Part shown: one piece after another, positions 1 through 13,045 of the stretch | Position numbering within the stretch: the first letter of the stretch is position 1 | Layout of the letters: each line of letters begins with the position of its first letter | DNA from: a virus | Strand: one strand, 5' to 3' | Length of the DNA: 13,045 nucleotides | Virus genome (UHGV): UHGV-0111502 | The notes under the pieces: generated by a model | Told to the model about the DNA's origin: nothing | What the model saw: only the letters and a program-made list of their open reading frames with translations | The model's database searches: none | Translations under genes and position numbers: made by a program

Positions 1-49
1 CACAGCACAAAGTGCATGAAGGAAAGGTGTTATATCCATTACGCCTCCT

Positions 50-754
50 TTATCCGATATCGCTTCGGGAAGTTAATAACAACTTTAATTCTGACTCAAG
101 TTCATCAACTCTTTCAGTCAGTTTCTGGATATGGTGAATCAGTGGAACAACCAGACGTTCGTACATTACACCTTCGGCAACAAGGCCATTGCTGGAAATA
201 GCTTCAGGAGCATCATCTTCGTTAGCTGGTCGCCAGTGTACAAACTGAGGGGCAATTTCTCCTACTTCCTCGGCAATCAATCCGTAGAACCCCCAGTCAC
301 GCCTGTCATTTTCGCATTGCGACCTGTACCACACAGGGCGCATCCTGAAAATGACATCGGCGTGCTCTGAATCTATCGTCTCTACTGAATGTTTATAGCG
401 AATAGACGATGTTGACCGCAGTACAGACGAAATTGCAGGGTCAGGATTAAGATAAAGGTTTGCCGCCGCTGTAGTCGTGCCCAATCCCCACAAATAAAAC
501 GCTTCACGGCCAGTCAACGGGTAAAAATCTCCACCATAACGACCGCTTTCCAGATCGTTCACTTCCAGTTTGTTTTTCAGCTTATTATCAACTTCAGTTT
601 TTGTGTATCTGGTACTGATATCCTGCTTTGCACTGGTCATATCAGTCTGAAGCGTTGATACTTTTCCGTTAATTGAGGAAATATCTTCCTTAGTTTTACT
701 GACATCTCCCTTTAGCGTGGTGATATCTCCTGGAATTACTGTCGATGTAGCCAT
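50..754 (-). CDS. Tail fibre/tail spike-like protein with N-terminal coiled-coil-like region and C-terminal intramolecular-chaperone (peptidase S74-type) domain
   Basis: 234-aa ORF; ATG at 754-752 preceded by GAGGGAG Shine-Dalgarno. N-terminal heptad-like repeats (DITTLKGDVSKTKEDISSINGKVSTLQTD). C-terminal block SSIRYKHSVETID...DWGFYGLIAEEV...NGLVAEGVMYERLVVPLI...ELESELKLL resembles tail-fibre C-terminal auto-chaperone domains. Family call from memory, not a search. Confidence 0.55.
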   Translation of the reverse strand: MATSTVIPGDITTLKGDVSKTKEDISSINGKVSTLQTDMTSAKQDISTRYTKTEVDNKLKNKLEVNDLESGRYGGDFYPLTGREAFYLWGLGTTTAAANLYLNPDPAISSVLRSTSSIRYKHSVETIDSEHADVIFRMRPVWYRSQCENDRRDWGFYGLIAEEVGEIAPQFVHWRPANEDDAPEAISSNGLVAEGVMYERLVVPLIHHIQKLTERVDELESELKLLLTSRSDIG

Positions 755-763
755 TTGTCTCCC

Positions 764-1045
764 TCACATCCAGCCACGAAGTTGATGCTCAACAACAACC
801 GCGTATTTATCGAATATTGACGATTTTTTTGCATCATTAATGATGCGCACGTTTACAAAATATCCGTCTTCCTTAACACATACCGGTTCGCCATCTTCAG
901 TCAGTTCTCCGGTTTCTTTGTACACGTTACCTATCACGTCAATAAGAATATCATCCTGCATCGACTCGTCATCATAATAGCCAATACTCTCCATAAAGGC
1001 CGAAAAGTCGGCCCTGTCTGCAAATTTGAGTGTTAAATCTTTCAT
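764..1045 (-). CDS. Hypothetical small acidic protein (93 aa) within the tail-fibre cluster
   Basis: ATG at 1045-1043 overlaps the TGA stop of the upstream gene (ATGA) and is preceded by GGGGGAGAG Shine-Dalgarno; the stop at 764 lies within the ribosome-binding region of the next gene. No family recognised. Confidence 0.45.
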   Translation of the reverse strand: MKDLTLKFADRADFSAFMESIGYYDDESMQDDILIDVIGNVYKETGELTEDGEPVCVKEDGYFVNVRIINDAKKSSIFDKYAVVVEHQLRGWM

Positions 1046-2228
1046 TTAATACTCTCCCCCATTTGCGCATCAGTTAATTCTTTATGCCAGATACGCAGAT
1101 TACGGATATGACCAAAAAGATGATACTCCCCATTAGTGCCCTGCCCTCCAATTCGCAATACTGCCCGTGGAACAATTGAAGTCCATGTTGTTTTTGCCGC
1201 AACAGATAATTCACCATTACATACGGCCTGAACATCTCCATCAGCGCCACAACGGAAGCCTGAAATGATTTTCCTCTGGGTTGTTGCCACATATTTATTA
1301 CACCCTCCCATAGAAATAAAAGGAGAACCGGCATCAGAGAAATTATTACCACGGAATCCATGCGTGAACAGACCATTTTCCTGATAATCTTTAACATTAA
1401 AGATTAATGGTGATTTGCTGGGAGGGATATCCCAGTTTTTATTAACTTCAACAAGAGCACTGAATGGTAATCGGTGAATATTGTTTCTTACAGGTATTGT
1501 CACCATGTCGCTGGAGCGAGTGCCAGGAGCCCCTTCAGTAATGATAAATGACGTCCTGTACGACCCAATCTCCGCCTGAGGCATCGCAATATCTAACGTA
1601 GAGCCATTGGGGATAATACTGATTCCAGGCATCGCCAGGATTTCAAATCTTGAGCTGATTATCATTTCCGCATCTGCAAAAAGAGTGGCGGTAAACAACC
1701 ACCATTCACCGACTCTTTCTGCCGTCACCGTCACATTATTTCCATGAACAACATTTCCCGTAACAGGATCCAGAGCTGCATCTGAATGAAAAACAAACGC
1801 ACCATTATCAGACATTTTTCCGAACCTTGCACGACACCGGGAATTATCACTTTTCGTCAGACACGATATCGTCGTATAAGAACCTGCCGGGCAGGTGTAA
1901 GCATCATTCGTGTTTACAGCAATTGCCTGATATCCTTGTGCTGTCGGATTTTCATTAATAACAGTTATCCTTCCATAGTTAAACCCCTTATCACTGTCGA
2001 ACGACTCAACAGACACACTACCCGTGTTATTCCATGCTTCTGGTGTATTTGAATTTCTGAAATAGTTTGTTCTCTGTCCTTCAATCAGCAAACCTTCTCG
2101 TTCAAATCGCGGTTCGTCAACTTCAGCAACGGTTAATACACCTGATTTATTAATGTATGTTGCACCTGATGCGCGTTTGAAGCTAACAACCTTATCGGAT
2201 GGCATTTTAATAACATCATCACCTACGG

Positions 2229-5017
<2,789 letters not shown>

Positions 5018-5043
<26 letters not shown>

Positions 5044-5563
5044 TCAGCAACCCCGGTATCAGTTCATCCAGCGCGGCTGCTTTGTTCATGGCTTTGATGA
5101 TATCCCGTTTCAGGAAATCAACATGTCGGTTTTCCAGTTCCGGAAAACGCCGCTGCACCGACAGGGGGATCCCGTCGAGAATACTGGCAATTTCACCTGC
5201 GATCCGCGACAGCACGAAAGTACAGAATGCGGTTTCCACCACTTCAGCGGAGTCTCTGGCATTTTTCAGCTCCTGTGCGTCGGCCTGTGCACGCGTAAGT
5301 CGGTGGCGTTCGTACTCAATAGTCCCTGGCTGGAGATCTGTCTCGCTGGCCTGCCGCAGTTCTTCAACTTCCCGGCGCAGCTTTTCGTTCTCAATTTCAG
5401 CATCCCTTTCGGCATACCATTTTATAACGGCGGCAGAGTCATAAAGCACCTCATTACCCTTGCCACCGCCTCGCAGAACGGGCATTCCCTGTTCCTGCCA
5501 GTTCTGAATGGTACGGATACTCGCACCGAAAATGTCAGCCAGCTGCTTTTTGTTGACTTCCAT
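5018..5563 (-). CDS. nu1: Terminase small subunit (lambda Nu1-like, 181 aa)
   Basis: 181-aa ORF MEVNKKQLADIFGASIRTIQNWQEQGMPVLRGGGKGNEVLYDSAAVIKWYAERD... matches lambda Nu1 as remembered (N-terminal DNA-binding fold), and lies immediately downstream of the cos region. Confidence 0.95.
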
Positions 5564-5790
5564 TGTTCATTCCACGGCCAAAAACAGAGAAAGGAAACGA
5601 CAGAGGCCCAAAAGTTCGTTTTCAGCACCTGTCGTTTCCTTTCTTTTCAGGGGGTATTTTAAATAAAAACATTAAGTTACGACGAAGAAGAACGGAAACG
5701 CCTTAAACCGGAAAATTTTCATAAATAGCGAAAACCCGCGAGGTCGCCGCCCCGTAACCTGTCGGATCGCCGGAAAGGACCCGCAAAATG
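5564..5790 (-). other. cos: Lambda-type cos region: cosN 12-nt cohesive-end sequence, flanking cosQ side, and cosB with Nu1-binding repeats
   Basis: Plus-strand aggtcgccgccc at 5741-5752 is the reverse complement of the lambda cohesive end GGGCGGCGACCT. The adjacent cgtaacctgtcggatcgccggaaaggacccg (5753-5783) is the reverse complement of the lambda right-end sequence. Between cosN and the Nu1 start there is a perfect 13-bp inverted repeat, aaggaaacgacag (5591-5603) and ctgtcgtttcctt (5629-5641), plus a related aacggaaacgcc near 5690-5702, consistent with R-type Nu1 sites. Confidence 0.85.
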
Positions 5791-5951
5791 ATAATGATTA
5801 TCATCTACATGTCACAACGTGCATCTACGCCATCAAACCACGTCAAATAATCAATTATGACGCAGGTATCGTATTAATTGATCTGCATCAACTTAACGTA
5901 AAAACAACTTCAGACAATACAAATCAGTGACACTGAATACAGGGCAACCTC

Positions 5952-6185
5952 ATGTCAACGAAGAACAGAACCCGCAGAACAACAACCCGCAACATCCGCT
6001 TTCCTAACCCAATGATTGAACAAATTAACATCGCTCTTGATCAAAAAGGGTCCGGGAATTTCTCAGCCTGGGTCATTGAAGCCTGCCGCCGAAGACTGTG
6101 CTCAGAAAAAAGAGTTTCGCCTGAAGCAAACAAAGAAAAGAGTGACATTACTGAATTGCTCAGAAAGCAGGTCAGACCAGATTGA
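5952..6185 (+). CDS. Small basic protein resembling the lambda right-end ORF (lambdap79/YlcI-like, possibly DUF3950-type)
   Basis: 77-aa ORF MSTKNRTRRTTTRNIRFPNPMIEQINIALDQKGSGNFSAWVIEACRRRL...; ATG at 5952; lies on the opposite strand next to cos, as the corresponding small ORF does in lambda. Family name recalled, not verified. Confidence 0.55.
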   Translation: MSTKNRTRRTTTRNIRFPNPMIEQINIALDQKGSGNFSAWVIEACRRRLCSEKRVSPEANKEKSDITELLRKQVRPD

Positions 6186-6242
6186 AGCAATTTAGATAAT
6201 CGTGCAGACTAGGTACCCTCATATCACATGGAAGGTACTACA

Positions 6243-6653
6243 ATGGCTCAGGTTGCCATTTTTAAACAAATATTCGATAAAGTGCGAAATAATTTAAACT
6301 ATCACTGGTTTTATTCTGAACTAAAACGTCACAATGTCTCACATTACATTTACTATTTAGCCACAGAGAATATTCATCTTGTTCTTGAAAACGATAATAC
6401 GGTTTTAATAAAAGGACAGGGTAAGGTTGTAAATGTAAGATTTTCAAAAAATAAATGCCTTATAGAAGCCACCTTAAAAGGATTCAAATCAGGAGAGTTA
6501 TCATTTTACGAATACAGGAAAAATCTTGCTACAGCAGGGGTTTTCAGATGGATTACAAATATCCACGAAAACAAAAGGTATTACTATACCTTTGATAATT
6601 CATTACTCTTTACTGAGAACATTCAGAACACTACACAAATATTTCCGCACTAA
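6243..6653 (+). CDS. ybcV: YbcV-like prophage protein (DUF1398-type), AT-rich moron
   Basis: ORF track begins at 6228, but the ATG at 6243 is preferred because it follows a GGAAGG Shine-Dalgarno at 6230-6235. Product [58 protein letters not shown]...; markedly AT-rich; position and orientation match ybcV in DLP12-type prophages as remembered. Confidence 0.5.
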
Positions 6654-6836
6654 ATCATAACGTCCGGTTTCTTCCGTGCCAGAACCGGACTCGCTGGCAT
6701 GATGAAATATGTGTACCCGGTAACCCCGGTGTGCATCGTTTTTGATTATTCCCGCACACTCGCGCAGAAGGAATTCCCCGTCGGGCTACGGTCATGGTTA
6801 ATGCGGGAATACGGCGACGATACAGCGCATAATGTG

Positions 6837-7385
6837 TCAGGCTTGAATACCTTTATCGAATCCCGGTAATAAAAACTGTCCCTGTCTCTCCAGACGTTCC
6901 AGCTTTGCAAGCAATTGAGGTTTTTTCGTTCTCCCCCAGCGATTGAGCAGACGGCCTGACATGCTGGCGACATCCTTCTCTTTCATGTACTCCAGCATTA
7001 CGGCGTTACGTTCTGCTTCATAACTTTCGCTGTACTTACGGAGTTCTGCTGACATCCAGTTAAACGCATTGATATAGGCTTCTTTAACAGCATCGGCTTT
7101 TGCTCCGTTAAATCCCATAACCAGCATAACGAAGCCACTAAAGTCCATGCGGTAGTAAATCTGTTTCTTGTCAAAAATCCCTAAGTCATTGATTTTCTCG
7201 ACGGCCCAAAAATGGGTTGTCGAGAATTCCTCAGAACATCTCAAACATTTAATAGCCCTAATCACATGCTGATGGCGTTTACCAAATGCCCTGGCAATCT
7301 GGAAGGTGTCAGTTACCGGTTGACCTTCTGCTGCGGTAACTAACTGGCGAAAGTCGAAGTCATGATTCGCAATTAATTCATTCAT
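6837..7385 (-). CDS. Phage regulatory protein, Rha family (antirepressor-like)
   Basis: Conserved Rha-type blocks LVTAAEGQPVTDTFQIARAFGKRHQHVIRAI and FDKKQIYYRMDFSGFVMLVMGFNGAKADAVKEAYINAFNWM. The ORF track start at 7454 is a GTG; the internal ATG at 7385 (MNELIANHDFDF...) is the preferred start, but this is uncertain. Confidence 0.55.
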   Translation of the reverse strand: MNELIANHDFDFRQLVTAAEGQPVTDTFQIARAFGKRHQHVIRAIKCLRCSEEFSTTHFWAVEKINDLGIFDKKQIYYRMDFSGFVMLVMGFNGAKADAVKEAYINAFNWMSAELRKYSESYEAERNAVMLEYMKEKDVASMSGRLLNRWGRTKKPQLLAKLERLERQGQFLLPGFDKGIQA

Positions 7386-7603
7386 GGCGTTGCCTGCTTC
7401 TTTGAAATGAACCTTTGCCGCACAGGAAACCAGCCCACCGAGGCTCGCCAGCACTAACTGGTATCCTCAAAGGCCCATTCCAAAGGGTCAGGTTCGGTGT
7501 TTATTGTGCGCTGCGGTGCGCGGTGAAATACCGGTACAAAAATGCCCCGCATCTGCGAGGCATTTTCCTGAAAGTCACTTGTTAAATTTCAGTGAAATTA
7601 AAA

Positions 7604-8062
7604 TTATTTTAAGCACTGCGTCCTGATGTACTCCTGCAGGTAGTTAACCTGCGCGGTTATCCTGTCGATTCCACTTCGGAGACGGTAATAATTGAGTTCA
7701 GCATCTGCTGTAAGTCCTGGGCTTTCTCCATCGCCCATGCCGCTGGCTCCGGTCGTTGACTTTGCACAGGTGGCGGCGACTTGCAGGCGCTTACGCCCAG
7801 CAGAAACATCAGCACGGAGACTTTCGATAGTCGCGTTAGCATCAGCAAGCTCCTTTGTGTATCTTGCGTCGAGTTCTGCTACATCACGTTGACGCTTCCG
7901 CATGTCAGCGATGGTGGCGGTCGCCTGCTTCAGCTCACTGACTTTTTTATCTCGCTGTTCTTTGTAGGCGATGGCGTTATCACGGTAATGATTGACCGCC
8001 CACGACAGGCAGACGATGATGCAGATAACCAGAGCGGAGATAATCGCGGTTACTCTGCTCAT
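7604..8062 (-). CDS. Rz: Spanin, inner-membrane subunit (Rz-like)
   Basis: [40 protein letters not shown]... has an N-terminal transmembrane helix followed by a coiled-coil periplasmic domain, very similar to lambda Rz as remembered. The ATG at 8062 overlaps the upstream stop (ATGA) and follows a GGGGGA Shine-Dalgarno; the track start at 8074 is a GTG. Confidence 0.85.
7657..7842 (-). CDS. Rz1: Spanin, outer-membrane lipoprotein subunit (Rz1-like), embedded out of frame inside Rz
   Basis: ORF lies entirely within Rz in another frame. The ATG at 7842 follows an AAGGAG Shine-Dalgarno; the product [20 protein letters not shown]... has a signal peptide with lipobox VSAC followed by a proline-rich segment ([16 protein letters not shown]), typical of Rz1. 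Confidence 0.75.
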
Positions 8063-8256
8063 TGTTTCCCCCACAAACAGACTTCACGCTCAATCTCACG
8101 GCGAGTCATCAGTCCTTTCCATTGATTACCGCCAGCGTATGTCCAGCGCCGTAGCTGATCACATGCGCCTTTAATATCACCCTGGTTTATTTTGCGAAGA
8201 AGCGTCGATGTTCTGAAATTGCCAGCACCCGTTGTTAACTTATCCATGGATTTCAT
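8059..8256 (-). pseudogene. Lysis-cassette remnant: in-frame fusion of a pinholin (S21/EssD-type) N-terminus to the C-terminal about 55 codons of a phage-21/RrrD-type lysozyme
   Basis: 65-codon [68 protein letters not shown]. Its first 6-10 residues match the dual-start N-terminus of the phage 21 pinholin (MKSMDK...) as remembered; the remainder matches the extreme C-terminus of the RrrD/R21-type endolysin. The catalytic N-terminal region and most of the holin are absent. A GAGGTGGGG Shine-Dalgarno is retained upstream of the ATG. Confidence 0.65.
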
Positions 8257-8829
8257 AACCCCACCTCGCAGACAAAGCGGGTGTAAATTGAGGGAATACT
8301 ACGAAACGTAACAGACTCGGAGTCAGTGAATAACTCAGGTATTGGGTTATCAGCTAATATCGAGACTCAAAAAATGGAAAAACCCGCTCGACGGCGGGTT
8401 TAAGCTGTGTGACGAAGTAACCACTCTTAACAGCATAACCAATTTTTTACGTACGTAAACTACTAAATGATATTTGCGAGAATGCTACCGAGTATTGAAA
8501 ACACCACTACAAATACATAAGCAAATCTCAACAAATAACCAACAAATAATTTCCAGCGTTATTTTTAGCCAATTTAAATTGAACCTTCAAATTATAGAGC
8601 ACTTATAAATAACAGCCATTAATATAAATTGGCTAATAGATTTATTTTTATTCAGCCAAGAGCCATGAATAGGATTCGATAGAAAAAAGTTCAGATAAAA
8701 ATAGAGATCTACTTCACAAATTAAACGAGAAACCAAAACTTACATCTTGAAATAATCACATTGATTAGATGAATATTTATCGCGCAGTGACATCATTTTT
8801 TAATAATAGTTCAAAAAAAAGGGCTCACG

Positions 8830-9912
8830 ATGAAAAAATTAACAGTGGCAATTTCTGCTGTAGCTGCATCAGTACTGATGGCGATGTCTGCTCAGGCAGC
8901 TGAAATTTATAATAAAGACAGTAACAAGCTGGATCTGTACGGGAAAGTTAATGCTAAGCACTACTTCTCCTCTAATGATGCAGATGATGGTGATACTACT
9001 TATGCCCGTCTTGGCTTCAAAGGTGAAACCCAAATCAACGATCAACTGACTGGTTTCGGTCAGTGGGAATATGAATTCAAAGGCAACCGCGCTGAATCTC
9101 AAGGTTCTTCCAAAGACAAAACCCGTCTTGCATTTGCAGGCCTGAAATTTGGTGATTACGGCTCAATCGATTACGGCCGTAACTACGGTGTAGCATACGA
9201 CATCGGTGCGTGGACTGACGTCCTGCCAGAATTCGGTGGTGATACCTGGACCCAAACAGATGTGTTCATGACTGGTCGCACTACTGGTGTTGCAACTTAT
9301 CGTAACAACGACTTCTTTGGTCTGGTCGATGGCCTGAACTTTGCTGCTCAGTATCAGGGTAAAAATGACCGCACTGACGTAACTGAAGCCAATGGTGATG
9401 GTTTCGGTTTCTCCACTACTTATGAGTATGAAGGATTCGGCGTGGGTGCAACCTATGCTAAATCAGATCGCACTGACGGTCAGGTCGCCTATGGTAAGAG
9501 CAAATTCAATGCCTCCGGCAAAAATGCGGAAGTATGGGCTGCAGGCCTGAAATATGATGCGAACAATATCTATCTGGCTACCACATATTCTGAAACTCAG
9601 AATATGACCGTTTTTGGTAATAACCATATTGCAAACAAAGCACAAAACTTTGAAGCAGTAGCACAATATCAGTTTGACTTCGGTCTGCGCCCATCTGTTG
9701 CTTACCTTCAGTCAAAAGGTAAAGACCTTGGTGTTCATGGTGACCGAGACTTAGTCAAGTATGTCGATGTCGGTGCTACTTACTACTTTAATAAAAACAT
9801 GTCCACTTTTGTTGATTACAAAATCAACTTAATTGACGATAGTAAGTTTACCAAAACAGCTGGTATTGATACTGATGATATCGTTGCTGTAGGTCTGGTT
9901 TACCAGTTCTAA
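8830..9912 (+). CDS. nmpC: Phage-encoded outer-membrane general porin (NmpC/Lc/OmpC-OmpF family), full length with signal peptide
   Basis: 360-aa [26 protein letters not shown]|[25 protein letters not shown]... ending in the porin C-terminal signature ...[12 protein letters not shown] at 8830, TAA at 9910-9912; oriented opposite to Q and the late genes, as nmpC/lc are in DLP12/PA-2-type phages. Confidence 0.9.
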
Positions 9913-9920
9913 TCTGATTA

Positions 9921-9959
9921 CGAAAAAGATATGTTGCGGGAGGCGTTGCCTCCCCAACA
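9921..9959 (-). terminator. Candidate intrinsic terminator on the minus strand (tR'-like), just downstream of the putative late promoter and just before the antisense porin
   Basis: Plus-strand 9932-9959 tgttgcgggaggcgttgcctccccaaca forms a 12-bp stem with one bulge and a 3-nt loop; on the minus strand the hairpin is followed directly by UAUCUUUUUCGU (reverse complement of 9920-9931). Confidence 0.45.
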
Positions 9960-10025
9960 TATAAGTGGCTCCCTCAAGCCACTTCCTTTAGAAGCACAAC
10001 CTTGCATCTAACTATATAAACCTTC

Positions 10026-10062
10026 TGTTATATATTACCCTTTATTTTTGGGGGCGTCTCAA
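10026..10062 (-). promoter_or_regulatory. Candidate Q-dependent late promoter (PR'-like)
   Basis: On the minus strand: TTGAGA (complement of 10057-10062), an 18-nt spacer, then TAATAT (complement of 10032-10037). It lies about 65-75 bp downstream of the Q stop, similar to the Q-to-PR' spacing in lambda; the predicted short transcript would end at the 9921-9959 terminator. Motif-based inference only. Confidence 0.4.
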
Positions 10063-10085
10063 CGCCCCATTTTTAATAATTTTTA
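10043..10085 (+). terminator. Candidate intrinsic terminator on the plus strand (end of the porin transcript / 3' UTR)
   Basis: GC stem GGGGCGT(10051-10057)/ACGCCCC(10062-10068) with loop CTCA, followed on the plus strand by AUUUUUAAUAAUUUUU. On the minus strand it is followed by an A-run, so it is unidirectional. Confidence 0.45.
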
Positions 10086-10101
10086 GTAAACAATTGGCAT
10101 A

Positions 10102-10485
10102 TTAATTAGAGTTATTAACAACGATATCCATCTCTAACCGGATATCTAATGCCATTAACATCCCTTCAATTATGCCCTCAGCCTTTTGTAACCTTTTCCC
10201 GATATAACCATCAGAGCAGCAATGCTTACCTGCCAGTGACATGAATGTCATACCGACTATATAATAATCTACTAATAAATCGTGCAAATCGCTGTTGTTC
10301 TTTTTCAGACGGGCCATGCACCCGCAAATGATCATCGCGTCATCGTCACAACATTGCGGGCGAGATTTTACTTTTGAAGGAATTAATCCCTTAAAACCGG
10401 CAGCAATGGACGACCAGGTCACATCCTCATGATTATTTGCCGCCCATGCGCCCCAGCGTTCAAGAACCATCTGAATATCACGCAT
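10102..10485 (-). CDS. quuD: Late-gene antiterminator Q (phage 82/QuuD type, 127 aa)
   Basis: [62 protein letters not shown]... matches the 82-type Q/QuuD sequence as remembered, including the Cys-rich zinc-binding region. The true ATG at 10485-10483 overlaps the upstream stop (TAATG); the track start at 10494 is a GTG. Confidence 0.8.
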
Positions 10486-11342
10486 TATTCGCACTCACCA
10501 ACCAGATTGAGAATGACCGCTGCACCGTCGTCTTCCATGCATTCACCCTTACCACTTGCCAGAAACCAGCGGCACACCTCCACGGCTTCAGCGCGTGTCA
10601 CCGGTTTGATGGTTGCCAGCAATTTTTCAAGGTAGCGCTCGCGGTCATATACCGATTCGTGATGCTCAGAGTAACCAAACTCATCGCCCTGTTCTTTAGT
10701 TGCAGTGTGGCGAACACTGTAGAGCCAGTCCCAGTAAACGAACTCGCGAACAACATCAGACAGCGTATAAGGCTCAGGCAGCACATCGCGATATCCATCA
10801 ACAAATGCCCGACGCTGTTCATCAATTTCGTTCATGCGGCTGCCGCCAATGCTTCCGGCTTTTTTCTCTGCCGCAGTCCAGCCCCAGAGATGATCGTTGA
10901 TAAATTTCTGGGAAGACCTGATGACCCGCTCTGCTTCCACATCTTCGAGCGCTGCTTCATAGCTACCAAACGTAGCCCTGACTGATGCCGCTTTTTTGAT
11001 GTTCTCCCGGGCGTTCCTGATAACCTGCGCAGGGTTATCCATGCCGATGATGCCGAACGCAACTTGGAAAGGTTCGTAACCATTCGCCAGCAGATAACGC
11101 GAATAGCGTTCCTGAGCCTCTTTTGGGGAAATTTTAATTTTCACCAGCGCAGCCTCAGCAGCATCCAGATGTGCGGGTTCGTTCAGACGGATAACCTCCA
11201 GCACCCAAAGATAAGCATCAGTCTGCTTATGCCCGGTGATTCTCCGTTGCTCTGGCAGGGGCTTGATGTTTGCGAGGGCGGAGCTGTACGCTGCCGTCGG
11301 GATGGTGAATAGTGCTTTATGTTCGTTATTATCAGTACGCAT
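10485..11342 (-). CDS. Uncharacterised 285-aa protein in the nin-region position between the primase-like gene and Q
   Basis: Long ORF with typical coding composition. Its ATG at 11342-11340 overlaps the stop of the Toprim gene (TAATG) and its stop overlaps the Q ATG (TAATG), so it is translationally coupled on both sides. No family recognised by inspection. Confidence 0.6.
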
Positions 11343-12310
11343 TACGCAACCGCCTTTTTCTTATGGAAAACCAGCTCTCGAACCTGATCACCGTTCATGA
11401 GCATATTGTTGAAATCATCGTGATCCGGCCAGTACACGCTCACGCGCTGCAGGTCATTCTTTGCCATCAGATTGGCATGAGCACATTCGCAAGCCGCAGC
11501 CAGCCCGGTGGCGCTGTTCTCGTCACGGTCGGCAAAAATAATCAGGTGCAGAACACCAGCTGGTACGCGAAACTTTTTCATAAAGCCGCTGTTAATGGTT
11601 GCCCAGGTGTTCACGTTATAAATCTGGTGCGCTGACAGCGCTGTTTCGATGCCTTCGGCGATACCCAGAGTGCTGGCGACAGGAAACATGCGGATAGCTA
11701 CAGAACGAGCGTGATCCAAATAGTTATCTTCCTGCAGGGATTTGAGGCGCTTTGCACTGCTACCGATATCTGCTTTTTTATCACCATCAAGCAGAGTCTG
11801 GTGCAGATAGCACAACTCCCCTTTATCGTCCGTAGCAAGTGAATAAAGAGACTGGAACACACTCCCGTTGTGTCTCTGCCTGGCATTGAACCGGATCGCC
11901 TCAGCAGGAAGACTGAATATTCCACGAGAATTAAGATACGCTGCGCCGGATGTACCACGCAGTGCCTCCAGTTTTGAAAACTTGCTCAATACCCGTTTGC
12001 GTAAGCTGGTGGCGCTGCTGGTTACCGGGATTTTAACCCGTTGGTAATCATTACCGATCAGGCGGTCTATTTCGGTACAAATCTCGTTAAATGGCTTCGC
12101 CTGTGTCAGGGTGACAAGTTTCATACCATCGCCACTACCACATACACAGATCCACGTTCCTGCACCGTCGCGGTCGTCAATTCGGAACTTGCCACGTGCA
12201 CCGCATACCGGGCATTCACCCTTGAAGTGATTTTTTCCGGTTATCGGCGGCAGACCGAAGTGCTCTAATATTTCAGGCCAGCGGCCTTTCGCTGCATCTG
12301 CTGTTTTCAT
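11342..12310 (-). CDS. Primase-like protein: N-terminal zinc-ribbon (CxxC...CxC) plus Toprim-type domain
   Basis: 322-aa ORF. N-terminus GECPVCGARGKFRIDDRDGAGTWICVCGSG is a primase-type zinc-binding motif. C-terminal half has an acidic Toprim-like signature (LHLIIFADRDENSATGL...YWPDHDDFNNM). ATG at 12310 lies 1 nt after the helicase stop. Confidence 0.65.
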   Translation of the reverse strand: MKTADAAKGRWPEILEHFGLPPITGKNHFKGECPVCGARGKFRIDDRDGAGTWICVCGSGDGMKLVTLTQAKPFNEICTEIDRLIGNDYQRVKIPVTSSATSLRKRVLSKFSKLEALRGTSGAAYLNSRGIFSLPAEAIRFNARQRHNGSVFQSLYSLATDDKGELCYLHQTLLDGDKKADIGSSAKRLKSLQEDNYLDHARSVAIRMFPVASTLGIAEGIETALSAHQIYNVNTWATINSGFMKKFRVPAGVLHLIIFADRDENSATGLAAACECAHANLMAKNDLQRVSVYWPDHDDFNNMLMNGDQVRELVFHKKKAVA

Positions 12311-12311
12311 C

Positions 12312-13045
12312 TTACTGACTCAGATTGTTTATATTTTTCTGGAGTTGGTGCTTTGCCTGCATGATGCGCCAGGCCTCACTGCCTGCCGGTATCTCACGTC
12401 GTTCATCACGTTCCTGAGATAAATCAATCGTTGTTTGTGCGTTTTCAGTGACCTTCTGAACCCGCTGGTGGCCTTTGGCAAACCGGATCAGTTTGTGTCT
12501 GATGTAGTTATTTACCTCAGGGGTAATTTCCATCGGAAAGTTACTCAGTCCGTCAGGCCACTCACCGAACTTTTCCCGGAAAGTGTGAGCACACCATCCG
12601 TCACTGACTGGACGCCCCAGCGAAGCACGCTGGCGCTGATAAAATTTGATCTGACTCCACCAGGACTGTTTCTCTGCCTTCGTCGACTGATGCTGATTTT
12701 TACCCAGCTTATTAAGTTTGCGGCTAGTGTCAGTATCAACGTCTTCACCTCGCAGCGGCTTGTGTCCACATTTCGGGCAAACATAGACGCCTGCTGGCTT
12801 CATGTAGTGGCATTGAGGGCATTCATGTGGCAGTTTTTCGGCCCGTTCCTCAACTGCCCGGCGCGCGCTTTCCTCCATGCCGTCAGACTTACCGGGAAGC
12901 TCGTCGTACTCGATTGAATCCGGATAACCCAAACGGTGCACGGTGCCGCTGTGATCGAAGATAAGGCAGGACTCTTTACCCGGTGCGGTGCGCAGCCCAC
13001 GCCTGAGCGCCTGCAACCAGCGAATTTCGCTTTTTGTTGTCCTGG
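12312..13045 (-). CDS. Helicase (SF2-like) C-terminal portion with zinc-ribbon; gene continues beyond the window edge
   Basis: Reading frame is open to the window end. ...EIRWLQALRRGLRTAPGKESCLIFDH resembles helicase motif VI (Q-x-x-G-R-x-x-R), followed by the Cys pairs CPQCHYMKPAGVYVCPKCGH. The track start at 13016 is a TTG inside the frame, not a real start. Confidence 0.65.
   Translation of the reverse strand, partial: RTTKSEIRWLQALRRGLRTAPGKESCLIFDHSGTVHRLGYPDSIEYDELPGKSDGMEESARRAVEERAEKLPHECPQCHYMKPAGVYVCPKCGHKPLRGEDVDTDTSRKLNKLGKNQHQSTKAEKQSWWSQIKFYQRQRASLGRPVSDGWCAHTFREKFGEWPDGLSNFPMEITPEVNNYIRHKLIRFAKGHQRVQKVTENAQTTIDLSQERDERREIPAGSEAWRIMQAKHQLQKNINNLSQ

Follow-up and report, generated by a model that had tools for sequence, protein, structure and literature searches.

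The lysis region of the window (the whole 13,045-nucleotide stretch of virus genome UHGV-0111502) raises a question of origin and of consequence. Directly upstream of an Rz gene, where holin and endolysin genes would be expected, lies a single ORF of 65 codons. The first-pass annotation, made from the letters alone, viewed this ORF as the start of a phage-21-type pinholin gene fused by deletion to the tail of a lysozyme gene, with the spanins left intact. Here, we asked whether the ORF is such a remnant, how it arose, what was lost with the missing DNA, and in which prophages the deleted allele occurs.

The fusion ORF and its two parents

The ORF (8059..8256, minus strand) was present as described, and was composed of essD codons 1-10 followed by codons 111-165 and the stop of an rrrD-type lysozyme gene. 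In the holin-derived part (8227..8256, minus strand), both start codons, Met1 and Met4, are kept, and the ten residues are identical to those of EssD from E. coli ECCWS199 and from K-12. The MKSMDK sequence had been ascribed to a holin, and this was borne out: in relatives, the same ten codons, with upstream DNA that is identical over more than 570 bp, open an intact EssD of 71 aa (Pfam PF04971, 'Bacteriophage P21 holin S', E 2e-35). The S21 68/71 nomenclature for holin and antiholin has been described previously (PMC9239132).

The endolysin-derived part (8059..8226, minus strand; codons 111-165 and the stop) represents the C-terminal lobe only, based on Pfam and on identity to the intact relative. 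The last 56 residues of the product, which ends in CLWGKQ, correspond to residues 110-165 of the ECCWS199 lysozyme with 56/56 identity, and 54/56 match K-12 RrrD, whose type of tail has K153 and Q164, in agreement with the proposed RrrD/R21-type origin of the tail. At the joint, a glycine (Gly10 of EssD, Gly110 of the lysozyme) is common to both parents. Residues 9-56 of the fusion aligned with positions 78-125 of the 125-position Phage_lysozyme model (PF00959, E 1.4e-15), such that the match was confined to the C-terminal part of this family, and the same Pfam search of the fusion returned no holin match. Over residues 1-165, the lysozyme of the intact relative aligned with two solved chains, 4zpu (RrrD) and the 165-aa lysozyme 3hde (E ~1e-103).

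Two cases had been named in advance as incompatible with a fusion, and neither was found. There was no full-length small protein collinear with the ORF; the database cluster that contains the 65-aa sequence is represented by the full-length, 165-aa RrrD, and the PHROG and Pfam matches of the fusion are partial endolysin matches. In addition, an intact holin or endolysin gene was absent from 8257-8829, where the sole minus-strand ORF of at least 40 aa has 49 aa. This TTG-start ORF (8736-8587, minus strand) was considered as a hidden lysis gene and rejected, as it had no PHROG match and its DNA is intergenic in intact relatives. Judged from its sequence, the fusion ORF is what is left, as a pseudogene, of the S-R part of a lysis cassette.

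A deletion between two GGGTG copies

Compared with the intact cassette of ECCWS199 (L001), the window lacks 515 of the 713 bp of the full essD-R segment, close to the earlier estimate of about 500 bp. The absent segment is L001 9221-9735 or 9226-9740, the choice being ambiguous within a repeat. The junction, expected near 8221-8227, was located in a single kept copy of GGGTG at 8226..8230 (minus strand). The intact cassette contains two copies, at L001 9221 and 9736, which are 515 bp apart, fall in holin codons 9-11 and endolysin codons 109-111, and sit inside an imperfect repeat, ACAACG[TG]GGTG. Both sides of the joint are otherwise conserved: identity to L001 was 99.7% for window 8226-10485 and 99.9% for 5461-8235, with exact matches of 105 and 181 bases on the two sides directly beside the joint. 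The signature of a short-direct-repeat deletion is present, with the repeat at both ancestral ends, one copy left and both sides exact. We conclude with high confidence that one 515-bp deletion between the two GGGTG copies inactivated the essD-rrrD-Rz/Rz1 lysis module of a DLP12-type cryptic lambdoid prophage.

Such a deletion would have occurred by slipped-strand or illegitimate recombination between the short direct repeats, with one copy kept. The description of the event as an in-frame deletion does not hold in the strict sense, since 515 is not divisible by three and two different frames were joined. Because S and R overlap out of frame (ATGA) and 515 equals 3n+2, the holin frame runs into the endolysin frame. 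The outcome is a 65-codon ORF with the holin Shine-Dalgarno sequence, both holin starts and an endolysin stop that overlaps the Rz start. A random deletion has a prior of one in three of giving an in-frame outcome, and the open frame is thus uninformative on selection. The event is ordinary deletional decay of a prophage.

Functional parts lost and retained

The deletion takes 61 of the 71 holin codons, both transmembrane domains included, and 109 of the 165 endolysin codons, among them those for the hydrophobic SAR segment at the N-terminus and for the catalytic motif E35-X8-D44-X5-T50 (defined as E-X8-D/C-X5-T; PMC9239132). In the intact relative, the catalytic motif lies at residues 35/44/50 and the SAR hydrophobic peak at residue 8, that is, within the deleted residues 1-109, and the fusion begins at 110/111. 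When transmembrane potential was gauged with a 19-residue Kyte-Doolittle window, the maximum hydropathy was -0.35 for the fusion, 1.72 for EssD, 2.11 for the SAR segment of the lysozyme and 2.63 for Rz. The fusion has neither the two transmembrane domains in ~68-71 aa of a pinholin nor the SAR domain and catalytic motif of a SAR endolysin; homology to the C-terminal lobe of the latter is present.

The translation signals are kept, as had been noted. The dual-start N-terminus (Met1, Met4) is accompanied by a ribosome-binding site, the Shine-Dalgarno-like GAGGTGGGG of essD (8259..8267, minus strand), which is identical in K-12 and ECCWS199, and at the other end the Rz start overlaps the fusion stop in an ATGA at 8062-8059. 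Retention of MKSMDK and GAGGTGGGG is a matter of descent from the holin gene and no sign of holin function.

Both spanin genes proved intact, again in line with the first-pass annotation. Rz (7604..8062, minus strand; 152 aa) matched positions 1-125 of 126 in PF03245 (E 3.6e-39) and, over its full length, PHROG 13 (E 3e-78), and is identical to Rz of the intact-cassette strain ECCWS199. It is a full-length i-spanin with an N-terminal transmembrane domain, whose hydrophobic segment reaches the hydropathy of 2.63 at residue 4, and a periplasmic coiled-coil part. Rz1 (7657..7842, minus strand; 61 aa), encoded in the +1 frame of Rz, matched PF06085 (E 2.4e-20) and PHROG 3198 (E 7e-29). It has the features of an o-spanin, including a VSAC lipobox and a proline-rich mature part, and AAGGAG is found 7 nt before its ATG. 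At the DNA level, Rz1 does not differ from that of L001 and L002.

The surroundings of the cassette are likewise preserved. The porin-essD intergenic DNA (8257..8829, minus strand), the regulatory region of the lysis operon, is unchanged, being collinear and identical with that of intact relatives; within it, a terminator-like hairpin (8401-8380) precedes a T run. A strong hairpin (-20 kcal/mol) with a T run was predicted by folding just after Rz (7538..7567, minus strand), and is likely the terminator of the lysis operon. An intact OmpC/NmpC-type porin gene (8830..9912, plus strand; PF00267, E 1.9e-151) lies between Q and the lysis genes, as is typical of DLP12. Also intact is quuD (10102..10485, minus strand; PF06530, E 1.2e-53), which codes for the Q antiterminator and is the regulator upstream of the late/lysis transcript. 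A sigma-70 promoter scan of 7400-10600 predicted no sites in 8257-8829 and, overall, fewer than in shuffled sequence, and an Rfam search across the whole window gave no RNA families.

If the operon is transcribed, a peptide of 65 or 62 aa would probably be made. With no transmembrane segment, SAR export signal or catalytic E-D-T residues, it should be cytoplasmic and inert, and intact Rz and Rz1 may still be translated. Spanins work only once peptidoglycan is degraded. Since they need this prior degradation, the module would no longer be able to lyse the cell, as far as can be judged from the anatomy of the cassette. The function lost is that of a host-retained DLP12 lysis module, not the release of viable phage.

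Prophage identity and distribution of the deleted allele

In the two complete genomes that carry the deletion, the element lies between argU/intD and appY/ompT. The contig to which the window belongs shows the appY side but not the argU/intD side, as it ends inside a helicase gene of a different early-region type; window 10486-13045 belongs to a prophage type found at mlrA in other strains. At ~2287-2291, the portal gene is truncated and joined to a fibre fragment, and no capsid or tail-shaft genes are found from there to appY. The element is a DLP12-type cryptic prophage of E. coli, which was already defective before the loss of lysis is counted.

The allele is rare. A 45-mer spanning the junction was detected in 2 of 5,426 complete E. 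coli genomes, one from Viet Nam and one from Ecuador. Strains 2017.11.01CC and PSS-10 are among the carriers. Both flanks occurred in one place in 2,133 complete genomes, and in every such case among the matches listed the two were spaced 1,013-1,033 bp apart, not 501 bp. The junction was absent from 50,697 phage genomes, IMG/VR and GTDB species representatives, and 345 deposited phage records matched the intact cassette region. The exact 65-aa protein was called on at least 24 contigs (24 examined of 47 indexed blocks), including human-gut metagenomes; its accessions include BDD34565.1, BEB82834.1, CAM7438717.1 and CAM7481452.1. All carriers with a recorded source came from humans or human-gut metagenomes.

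Carrier loci are closely related. Ten of the 11 compared showed 0-1 base differences over 5.2 kb around the joint, and in the eleventh (L014) the match reaches only to the end of Rz. Among complete genomes, the second rare junction of the window, at ~2287-2291, was found in the two carriers and in no others. Downstream, the 24 contigs examined fell into no fewer than eight configurations, and the carrier configurations at the DLP12 locus are all derivable from a window-like one. By parsimony, a single origin of the allele is most likely. The DLP12 lineage that carries it is rare, has a private portal-to-fibre deletion, and has since decayed further in several different ways. The flanks do not differ between the intact and the deleted allele, so the deleted lineage has no private SNP by which it could be told apart. 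In the draft contig L014 (GCA_965182725.1), the allele adjoins a different, apparently complete structural module with a P27-type terminase and a contractile tail; if this join is real, the allele was moved by recombination.

Alternative explanations

A rare joint in a metagenomic sequence could be an assembly or sequencing artefact that hides an intact essD-rrrD, and some features of the window are of this kind: it matches a metagenome-assembled contig (ERZ1304020 NODE_1188) at 100% identity, and the part at 10486-13045 from an mlrA-sited prophage type makes contig chimerism conceivable. However, two independent complete genomes, one Vietnamese and one Ecuadorian, have the identical junction, as do isolate drafts and several metagenomes of different projects, and one exact microhomology joint across platforms is not expected from assembly collapse; an artefact has a negligible probability and is effectively refuted already. 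A real deletion might still have recurred at a GGGTG hotspot, given that the repeat exceeds 5 bp if a 2-base gap is allowed and that carriers show many downstream structures and two upstream contexts. Yet the two complete-genome carriers have a second private junction in common that no other complete genome contains, the structures of the carriers at the DLP12 locus all derive, in nested fashion, from a single configuration, 10 of the 11 loci are nearly identical over 5.2 kb, and the joint occurs in no deposited phage or IMG/VR contig, versus the 345 phage records with the intact region. Recurrence is therefore highly unlikely.

Two further proposals concern meaning rather than origin. The fusion product could be a newly arisen small protein with a function of its own, such as the control of other pinholin/SAR-endolysin cassettes within the same cell, considering that translation signals and both starts are kept, the ORF is open to the original stop and the exact sequence is conserved among carriers. 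This conservation is trivial, however, because the whole 5-kb region is nearly identical; moreover, the ten holin residues, none of which is membrane-embedded, make pairing with holin transmembrane domains impossible, the endolysin fragment has no catalytic lobe, and no such family exists, with a full-length RrrD as cluster representative and only partial PHROG/Pfam matches. We regard a new function as very improbable. The loss of holin and endolysin could instead have been selected in this lineage. The K-12 module is lytic when overexpressed, and restoring the module in Shigella led to more peptidoglycan release and lower virulence (PMC7918800); carriers with a recorded source are human or human-gut metagenomes, and the allele is old enough for several further downstream rearrangements. 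On the other hand, it is very rare (two complete genomes against 2,133 with both flanks together), its confinement to one lineage, from which other prophage DNA is being lost as well, is expected of neutral erosion, and an engineered K-12 essD-ybcS double deletion was near wild type for vesicle production (PMC7918800), which leaves adaptive loss a slim prospect. The bolder forms of these ideas, namely Shigella-like selected loss of the module in human-gut E. coli, cutting self-lysis and release of peptidoglycan fragments, or recombinational spread of the allele into a complete prophage (L014), are together also improbable; if the latter were true, it would imply a lysis-defective but structurally intact phage.

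Annotation and implications

Having weighed these alternatives, we retain a single 515-bp deletion followed by further erosion of one lineage. In RefSeq, the fusion ORF of the two complete genomes is a partial rrrD pseudogene ('lysozyme RrrD, incomplete, missing N-terminus'), and in GenBank it is labelled 'glycoside hydrolase family protein' or 'hypothetical protein'. It is best handled as a pseudogene, a holin-start::endolysin-tail remnant, of little importance beyond annotation. Links to biofilm, cell-wall turnover and vesicle production have been described for the K-12 DLP12 lysis module. The carriers, in which holin and endolysin are both disrupted and the spanins intact, are accordingly natural double mutants that could be used as controls. 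They also form a small, clean nested-deletion series in one cryptic prophage.

Comparison with known lysis systems

The nearest known system is the DLP12 module of K-12, essD-rrrD(ybcS)-rzpD/rzoD, also called Dlm, which is the S-R part of the old qsr' region; a literature search found no paper matching DLP12, essD and rrrD together. As in the window, K-12 DLP12 has quuD, an opposite-strand porin gene, essD, rrrD and Rz/Rz1 in this order. The ancestral EssD is identical to K-12 EssD at 71/71 residues, and the leader with its Shine-Dalgarno sequence is identical over 21 aligned bases before the ATG. Unlike K-12, the window has neither EssD residues 11-71 nor RrrD residues 1-109, and it carries a different spanin allele, with 60% identity of Rz to RzpD and 39% identity of Rz1 to RzoD. 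In addition, a Rha-family gene follows the cassette where K-12 has borD, and the porin gene is intact, in contrast to nmpC of K-12, which IS5 interrupts.

The phage 21 cassette (pinholin S68/antiholin S71 and SAR endolysin R21) was compared via PF04971 and PDB 4zpu, 3hde and 3hdf, its genome not being among the matches listed from the phage collection. In the intact system, the SAR endolysin is released by pinholin depolarisation (PMC6116005, PMC9239132). Of the phage 21 system, no working part is left in the window, which keeps only the ten N-terminal residues of the holin and, of the endolysin, the C-terminal third.

Natural loss of the DLP12 module has precedent in the E. coli/Shigella group, and plasmid-borne overexpression of the module lyses K-12 (PMC7918800). 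The Shigella and delta-SR losses described in the same study likewise remove DLP12 holin and endolysin function, and in the delta-SR case the spanins stay, as they do here. The present loss differs from those cases in that it came about spontaneously, through a microhomology deletion after which a fusion ORF is still open, and it is found in a rare lineage of E. coli, from human sources where these are recorded, rather than in Shigella.

A deletion within the lysis genes

Deletion of part of the lysis cassette was evident from comparison with complete E. coli genomes. In a megablast search with 7950-8450, 2,133 of 5,426 genomes held both flanks at one site, and in every such row among the matches listed the flanks lay as two segments 1,013-1,033 bp apart, versus 501 in the window. 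The best match, ECCWS199 (L001), was 100% identical and carried essD (71 aa), a 165-aa lysozyme gene and the same Rz as the window; identity to this locus was 99.7% over window 8226-10485 and 99.9% over 5461-8235. Base-by-base extension from both sides gave zero mismatches up to a pentamer, GGGTG, which occurred at 9221 and 9736 in L001 and as a single copy at 8226-8230 in the window. The window thus lacks a 515-bp segment, in agreement with the approximately 500 bp estimated in the first-pass annotation. With a 2-base gap allowed, the repeat extended further (ACAACG-GGTG versus ACAACGTGGGTG).

The term "in-frame deletion" used in that annotation is correct for the product but not for the event. 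Because essD and R are overlapping genes in different frames and 515 = 3n+2, translation would leave the S frame and continue in the R frame, yielding an in-frame fusion by what is not strictly an in-frame deletion. Since one in three random deletions would keep the frame open, this outcome gives no evidence for selection.

Ancestral EssD was identical to K-12 EssD, and the lysozyme tail of the fusion was identical to K-12 RrrD at 54 of 56 positions. Intact EssD matched Pfam PF04971, "Bacteriophage P21 holin S" (E 2e-35), and the intact lysozyme matched solved chains 4zpu (RrrD) and 3hde across all 165 residues (E ~1e-103 to 1e-104). The endolysin R21 is of the signal-anchor-release type and stays inactive in the membrane until depolarization by the pinholin S21 68; S21 71, made from an upstream start, is the antiholin form, and the lysozyme catalytic motif is E-X8-D-X5-T (PMC6116005, PMC9239132).

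The fusion protein

The fusion ORF (65 codons, minus strand) runs from an ATG at 8256 to a TGA ending at 8059. Protein comparison bore out the proposed holin start and endolysin tail: EssD residues 1-10 run directly into lysozyme residues 111-165, and Gly10/Gly110 is common to both. Pfam matched only residues 9-56, to Phage_lysozyme positions 78-125 of 125, which is the C-terminal part without the N-terminal two-thirds. Both the E35/D44/T50 motif and the hydrophobic N-terminal segment (peak at residue 8) of the intact relative's lysozyme lie within the deleted part. No hydrophobic stretch was found in the fusion protein with a 19-residue Kyte-Doolittle window (maximum -0.35, versus 1.72 for EssD, 2.11 for the lysozyme and 2.63 for Rz). 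Lacking these features, the predicted product could not be a holin, nor could it be a muramidase that is exported or active.

As had been noted, the holin ribosome-binding site (GAGGTGGGG, 8267-8259, minus strand, just 5′ of the ATG) and the ATGA overlap of the fusion stop with the Rz start (8062-8059, minus strand) are preserved. Because these translation signals are intact, the peptide may well be made in carriers; nothing suggests a function for it. RefSeq already flags the ORF as a pseudogene in two complete genomes ("lysozyme RrrD, incomplete, missing N-terminus"), and the holin-derived start is not recorded there. GenBank labels were "glycoside hydrolase family protein" or "hypothetical protein".

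Spanins and the remaining operon

Rz and Rz1 are intact, as first described. The i-spanin Rz (8062-7604, minus strand) is full length at 152 aa (PF03245, E 3.6e-39; PHROG 13, E 3e-78). The o-spanin Rz1 (7842-7657, minus strand; 61 codons) is embedded in the +1 frame of Rz and has a VSAC lipobox and a proline-rich mature part (PF06085, E 2.4e-20; PHROG 3198). The spanin alleles at 7604-8062 showed 60% and 39% identity to K-12 rzpD and rzoD.

We considered whether an intact holin or endolysin might be hidden upstream. The porin-essD intergenic region (8257-8829) was ordinary and identical to that of intact relatives, and ORF calls, alignment to these relatives and PHROG revealed no lysis gene within it. 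Terminator-like hairpins were observed in the lysis-operon leader (8380-8401, minus strand; -12 kcal/mol, with a T run, ~125 bp 5′ of the fusion start) and, stronger, directly 3′ of Rz (7538-7567, minus strand; -20 kcal/mol). Q and the lysis genes are separated by an intact, oppositely oriented OmpC/NmpC-type porin gene (8830-9912, plus strand; 360 aa), to which any Q-dependent late transcript would run antisense.

Having lost its holin and endolysin, the module would be unable to depolarize the membrane or cut peptidoglycan. It is established for the Rz/Rz1 system that spanins alone do not cause cell lysis.

Distribution and origin

The joint was traced with a 45-mer centered on it, for which either flank alone cannot seed a match. 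Among the 5,426 complete genomes it was present in only two, both of human source: 2017.11.01CC from Viet Nam and PSS-10 from Ecuador. Exact copies of the 65-aa protein were called on 24 contigs examined, among 47 indexed blocks, including isolate drafts and human-gut metagenomes; one metagenome contig (ERZ1304020 NODE_1188) was 100% identical to the entire window. In 10 of 11 carrier loci compared, the 5.2 kb around the joint differed by 0-1 bases; the exception was L014, described below. No such joint was detected in 50,697 deposited phage genomes, IMG/VR or GTDB species representatives, which fits an allele living only in a cryptic prophage.

Both complete-genome carriers have the element at the DLP12 site, flanked by tRNA-Arg/intD and appY-ompT. 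It retains neither capsid nor tail-shaft genes, and the prophage was thus already incapable of particle formation. The claim that the lysis cassette is disabled holds in that parts of S and R are lost, with the qualification that the DLP12-type prophage carrying it was itself already defective. At a second deletion joint (~2287-2291; window 2229-2918 and 1042-2265), the N-terminal part of a lambda-type portal gene runs into the C-terminal end of a "head spike/tail fibre" gene, with loss of every capsid and tail-shaft gene. A 45-mer across this portal-fibre joint occurred in exactly the same two complete genomes and no others.

Carriers differed downstream by further deletions (L006-L013 against window 1-5057; window-side breakpoints 5057, 4799, 4448, 3576 and 2491) and a 1,046-bp inversion. 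These deletions form a nested series across the packaging and fibre region and cleanly document the decay of one cryptic prophage. The inversion, in PSS-10 (L003 10823-11868; L005 14829-15874), corresponds to window 2383-3428 and spans the terminase A end, W and the portal start, splitting the terminase gene. Each of these rearrangements can be derived from a window-like arrangement. One deletion event in a single rare DLP12 lineage that is still eroding is the simplest reading. The first-pass observation is confirmed and its interpretation supported; the event is an ordinary case of a cryptic prophage decaying by deletion.

In a draft contig (L014 1-11977; GCA_965182725.1 contig 72), the match to the window was limited to the porin through the end of Rz. 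Downstream of the deleted cassette and Rz come HNH, a P27-type small terminase, large terminase, portal, protease, capsid and tail sheath, an apparently complete structural module, and the join passes through ~305 bp of common Rz 3′ sequence. This could be a lysis-defective yet otherwise intact prophage or a misassembly; the arrangement was in no complete genome. The left end of the window (10486-13045) encodes a helicase fragment, a toprim primase and a 285-aa PHROG 6204 protein, atypical of the DLP12 early region, and matches, at 99.9% identity, a complete lambdoid prophage that other strains carry at mlrA. The switch occurs at the quuD start, with 7 SNPs clustered at 10402-10459, and is either a real recombinant or a metagenome-contig chimera.

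Comparison with K-12 DLP12

The carrier gene order (quuD, opposite-strand porin, lysis genes, Rha-family gene, DUF1398, ylcI, nohD, terminase A, W, and a portal fragment joined to fibre fragments) has the same core as K-12 DLP12. The Rha-family regulator/anti-repressor gene (6837-7454) follows the spanins, where K-12 has borD. The porin gene is intact, whereas IS5 interrupts its K-12 equivalent, nmpC. In K-12 the module forms an active operon, with control by a Q-type antiterminator, RpoE and Hha reported in work cited by PMC7918800; its overexpression leads to lysis, and the module has been lost in Shigella (PMC7918800; PMC2408971). Since an engineered K-12 essD-ybcS (rrrD) double deletion had vesicle output close to wild type (PMC7918800), a strong host phenotype would not be expected from the natural deletion.
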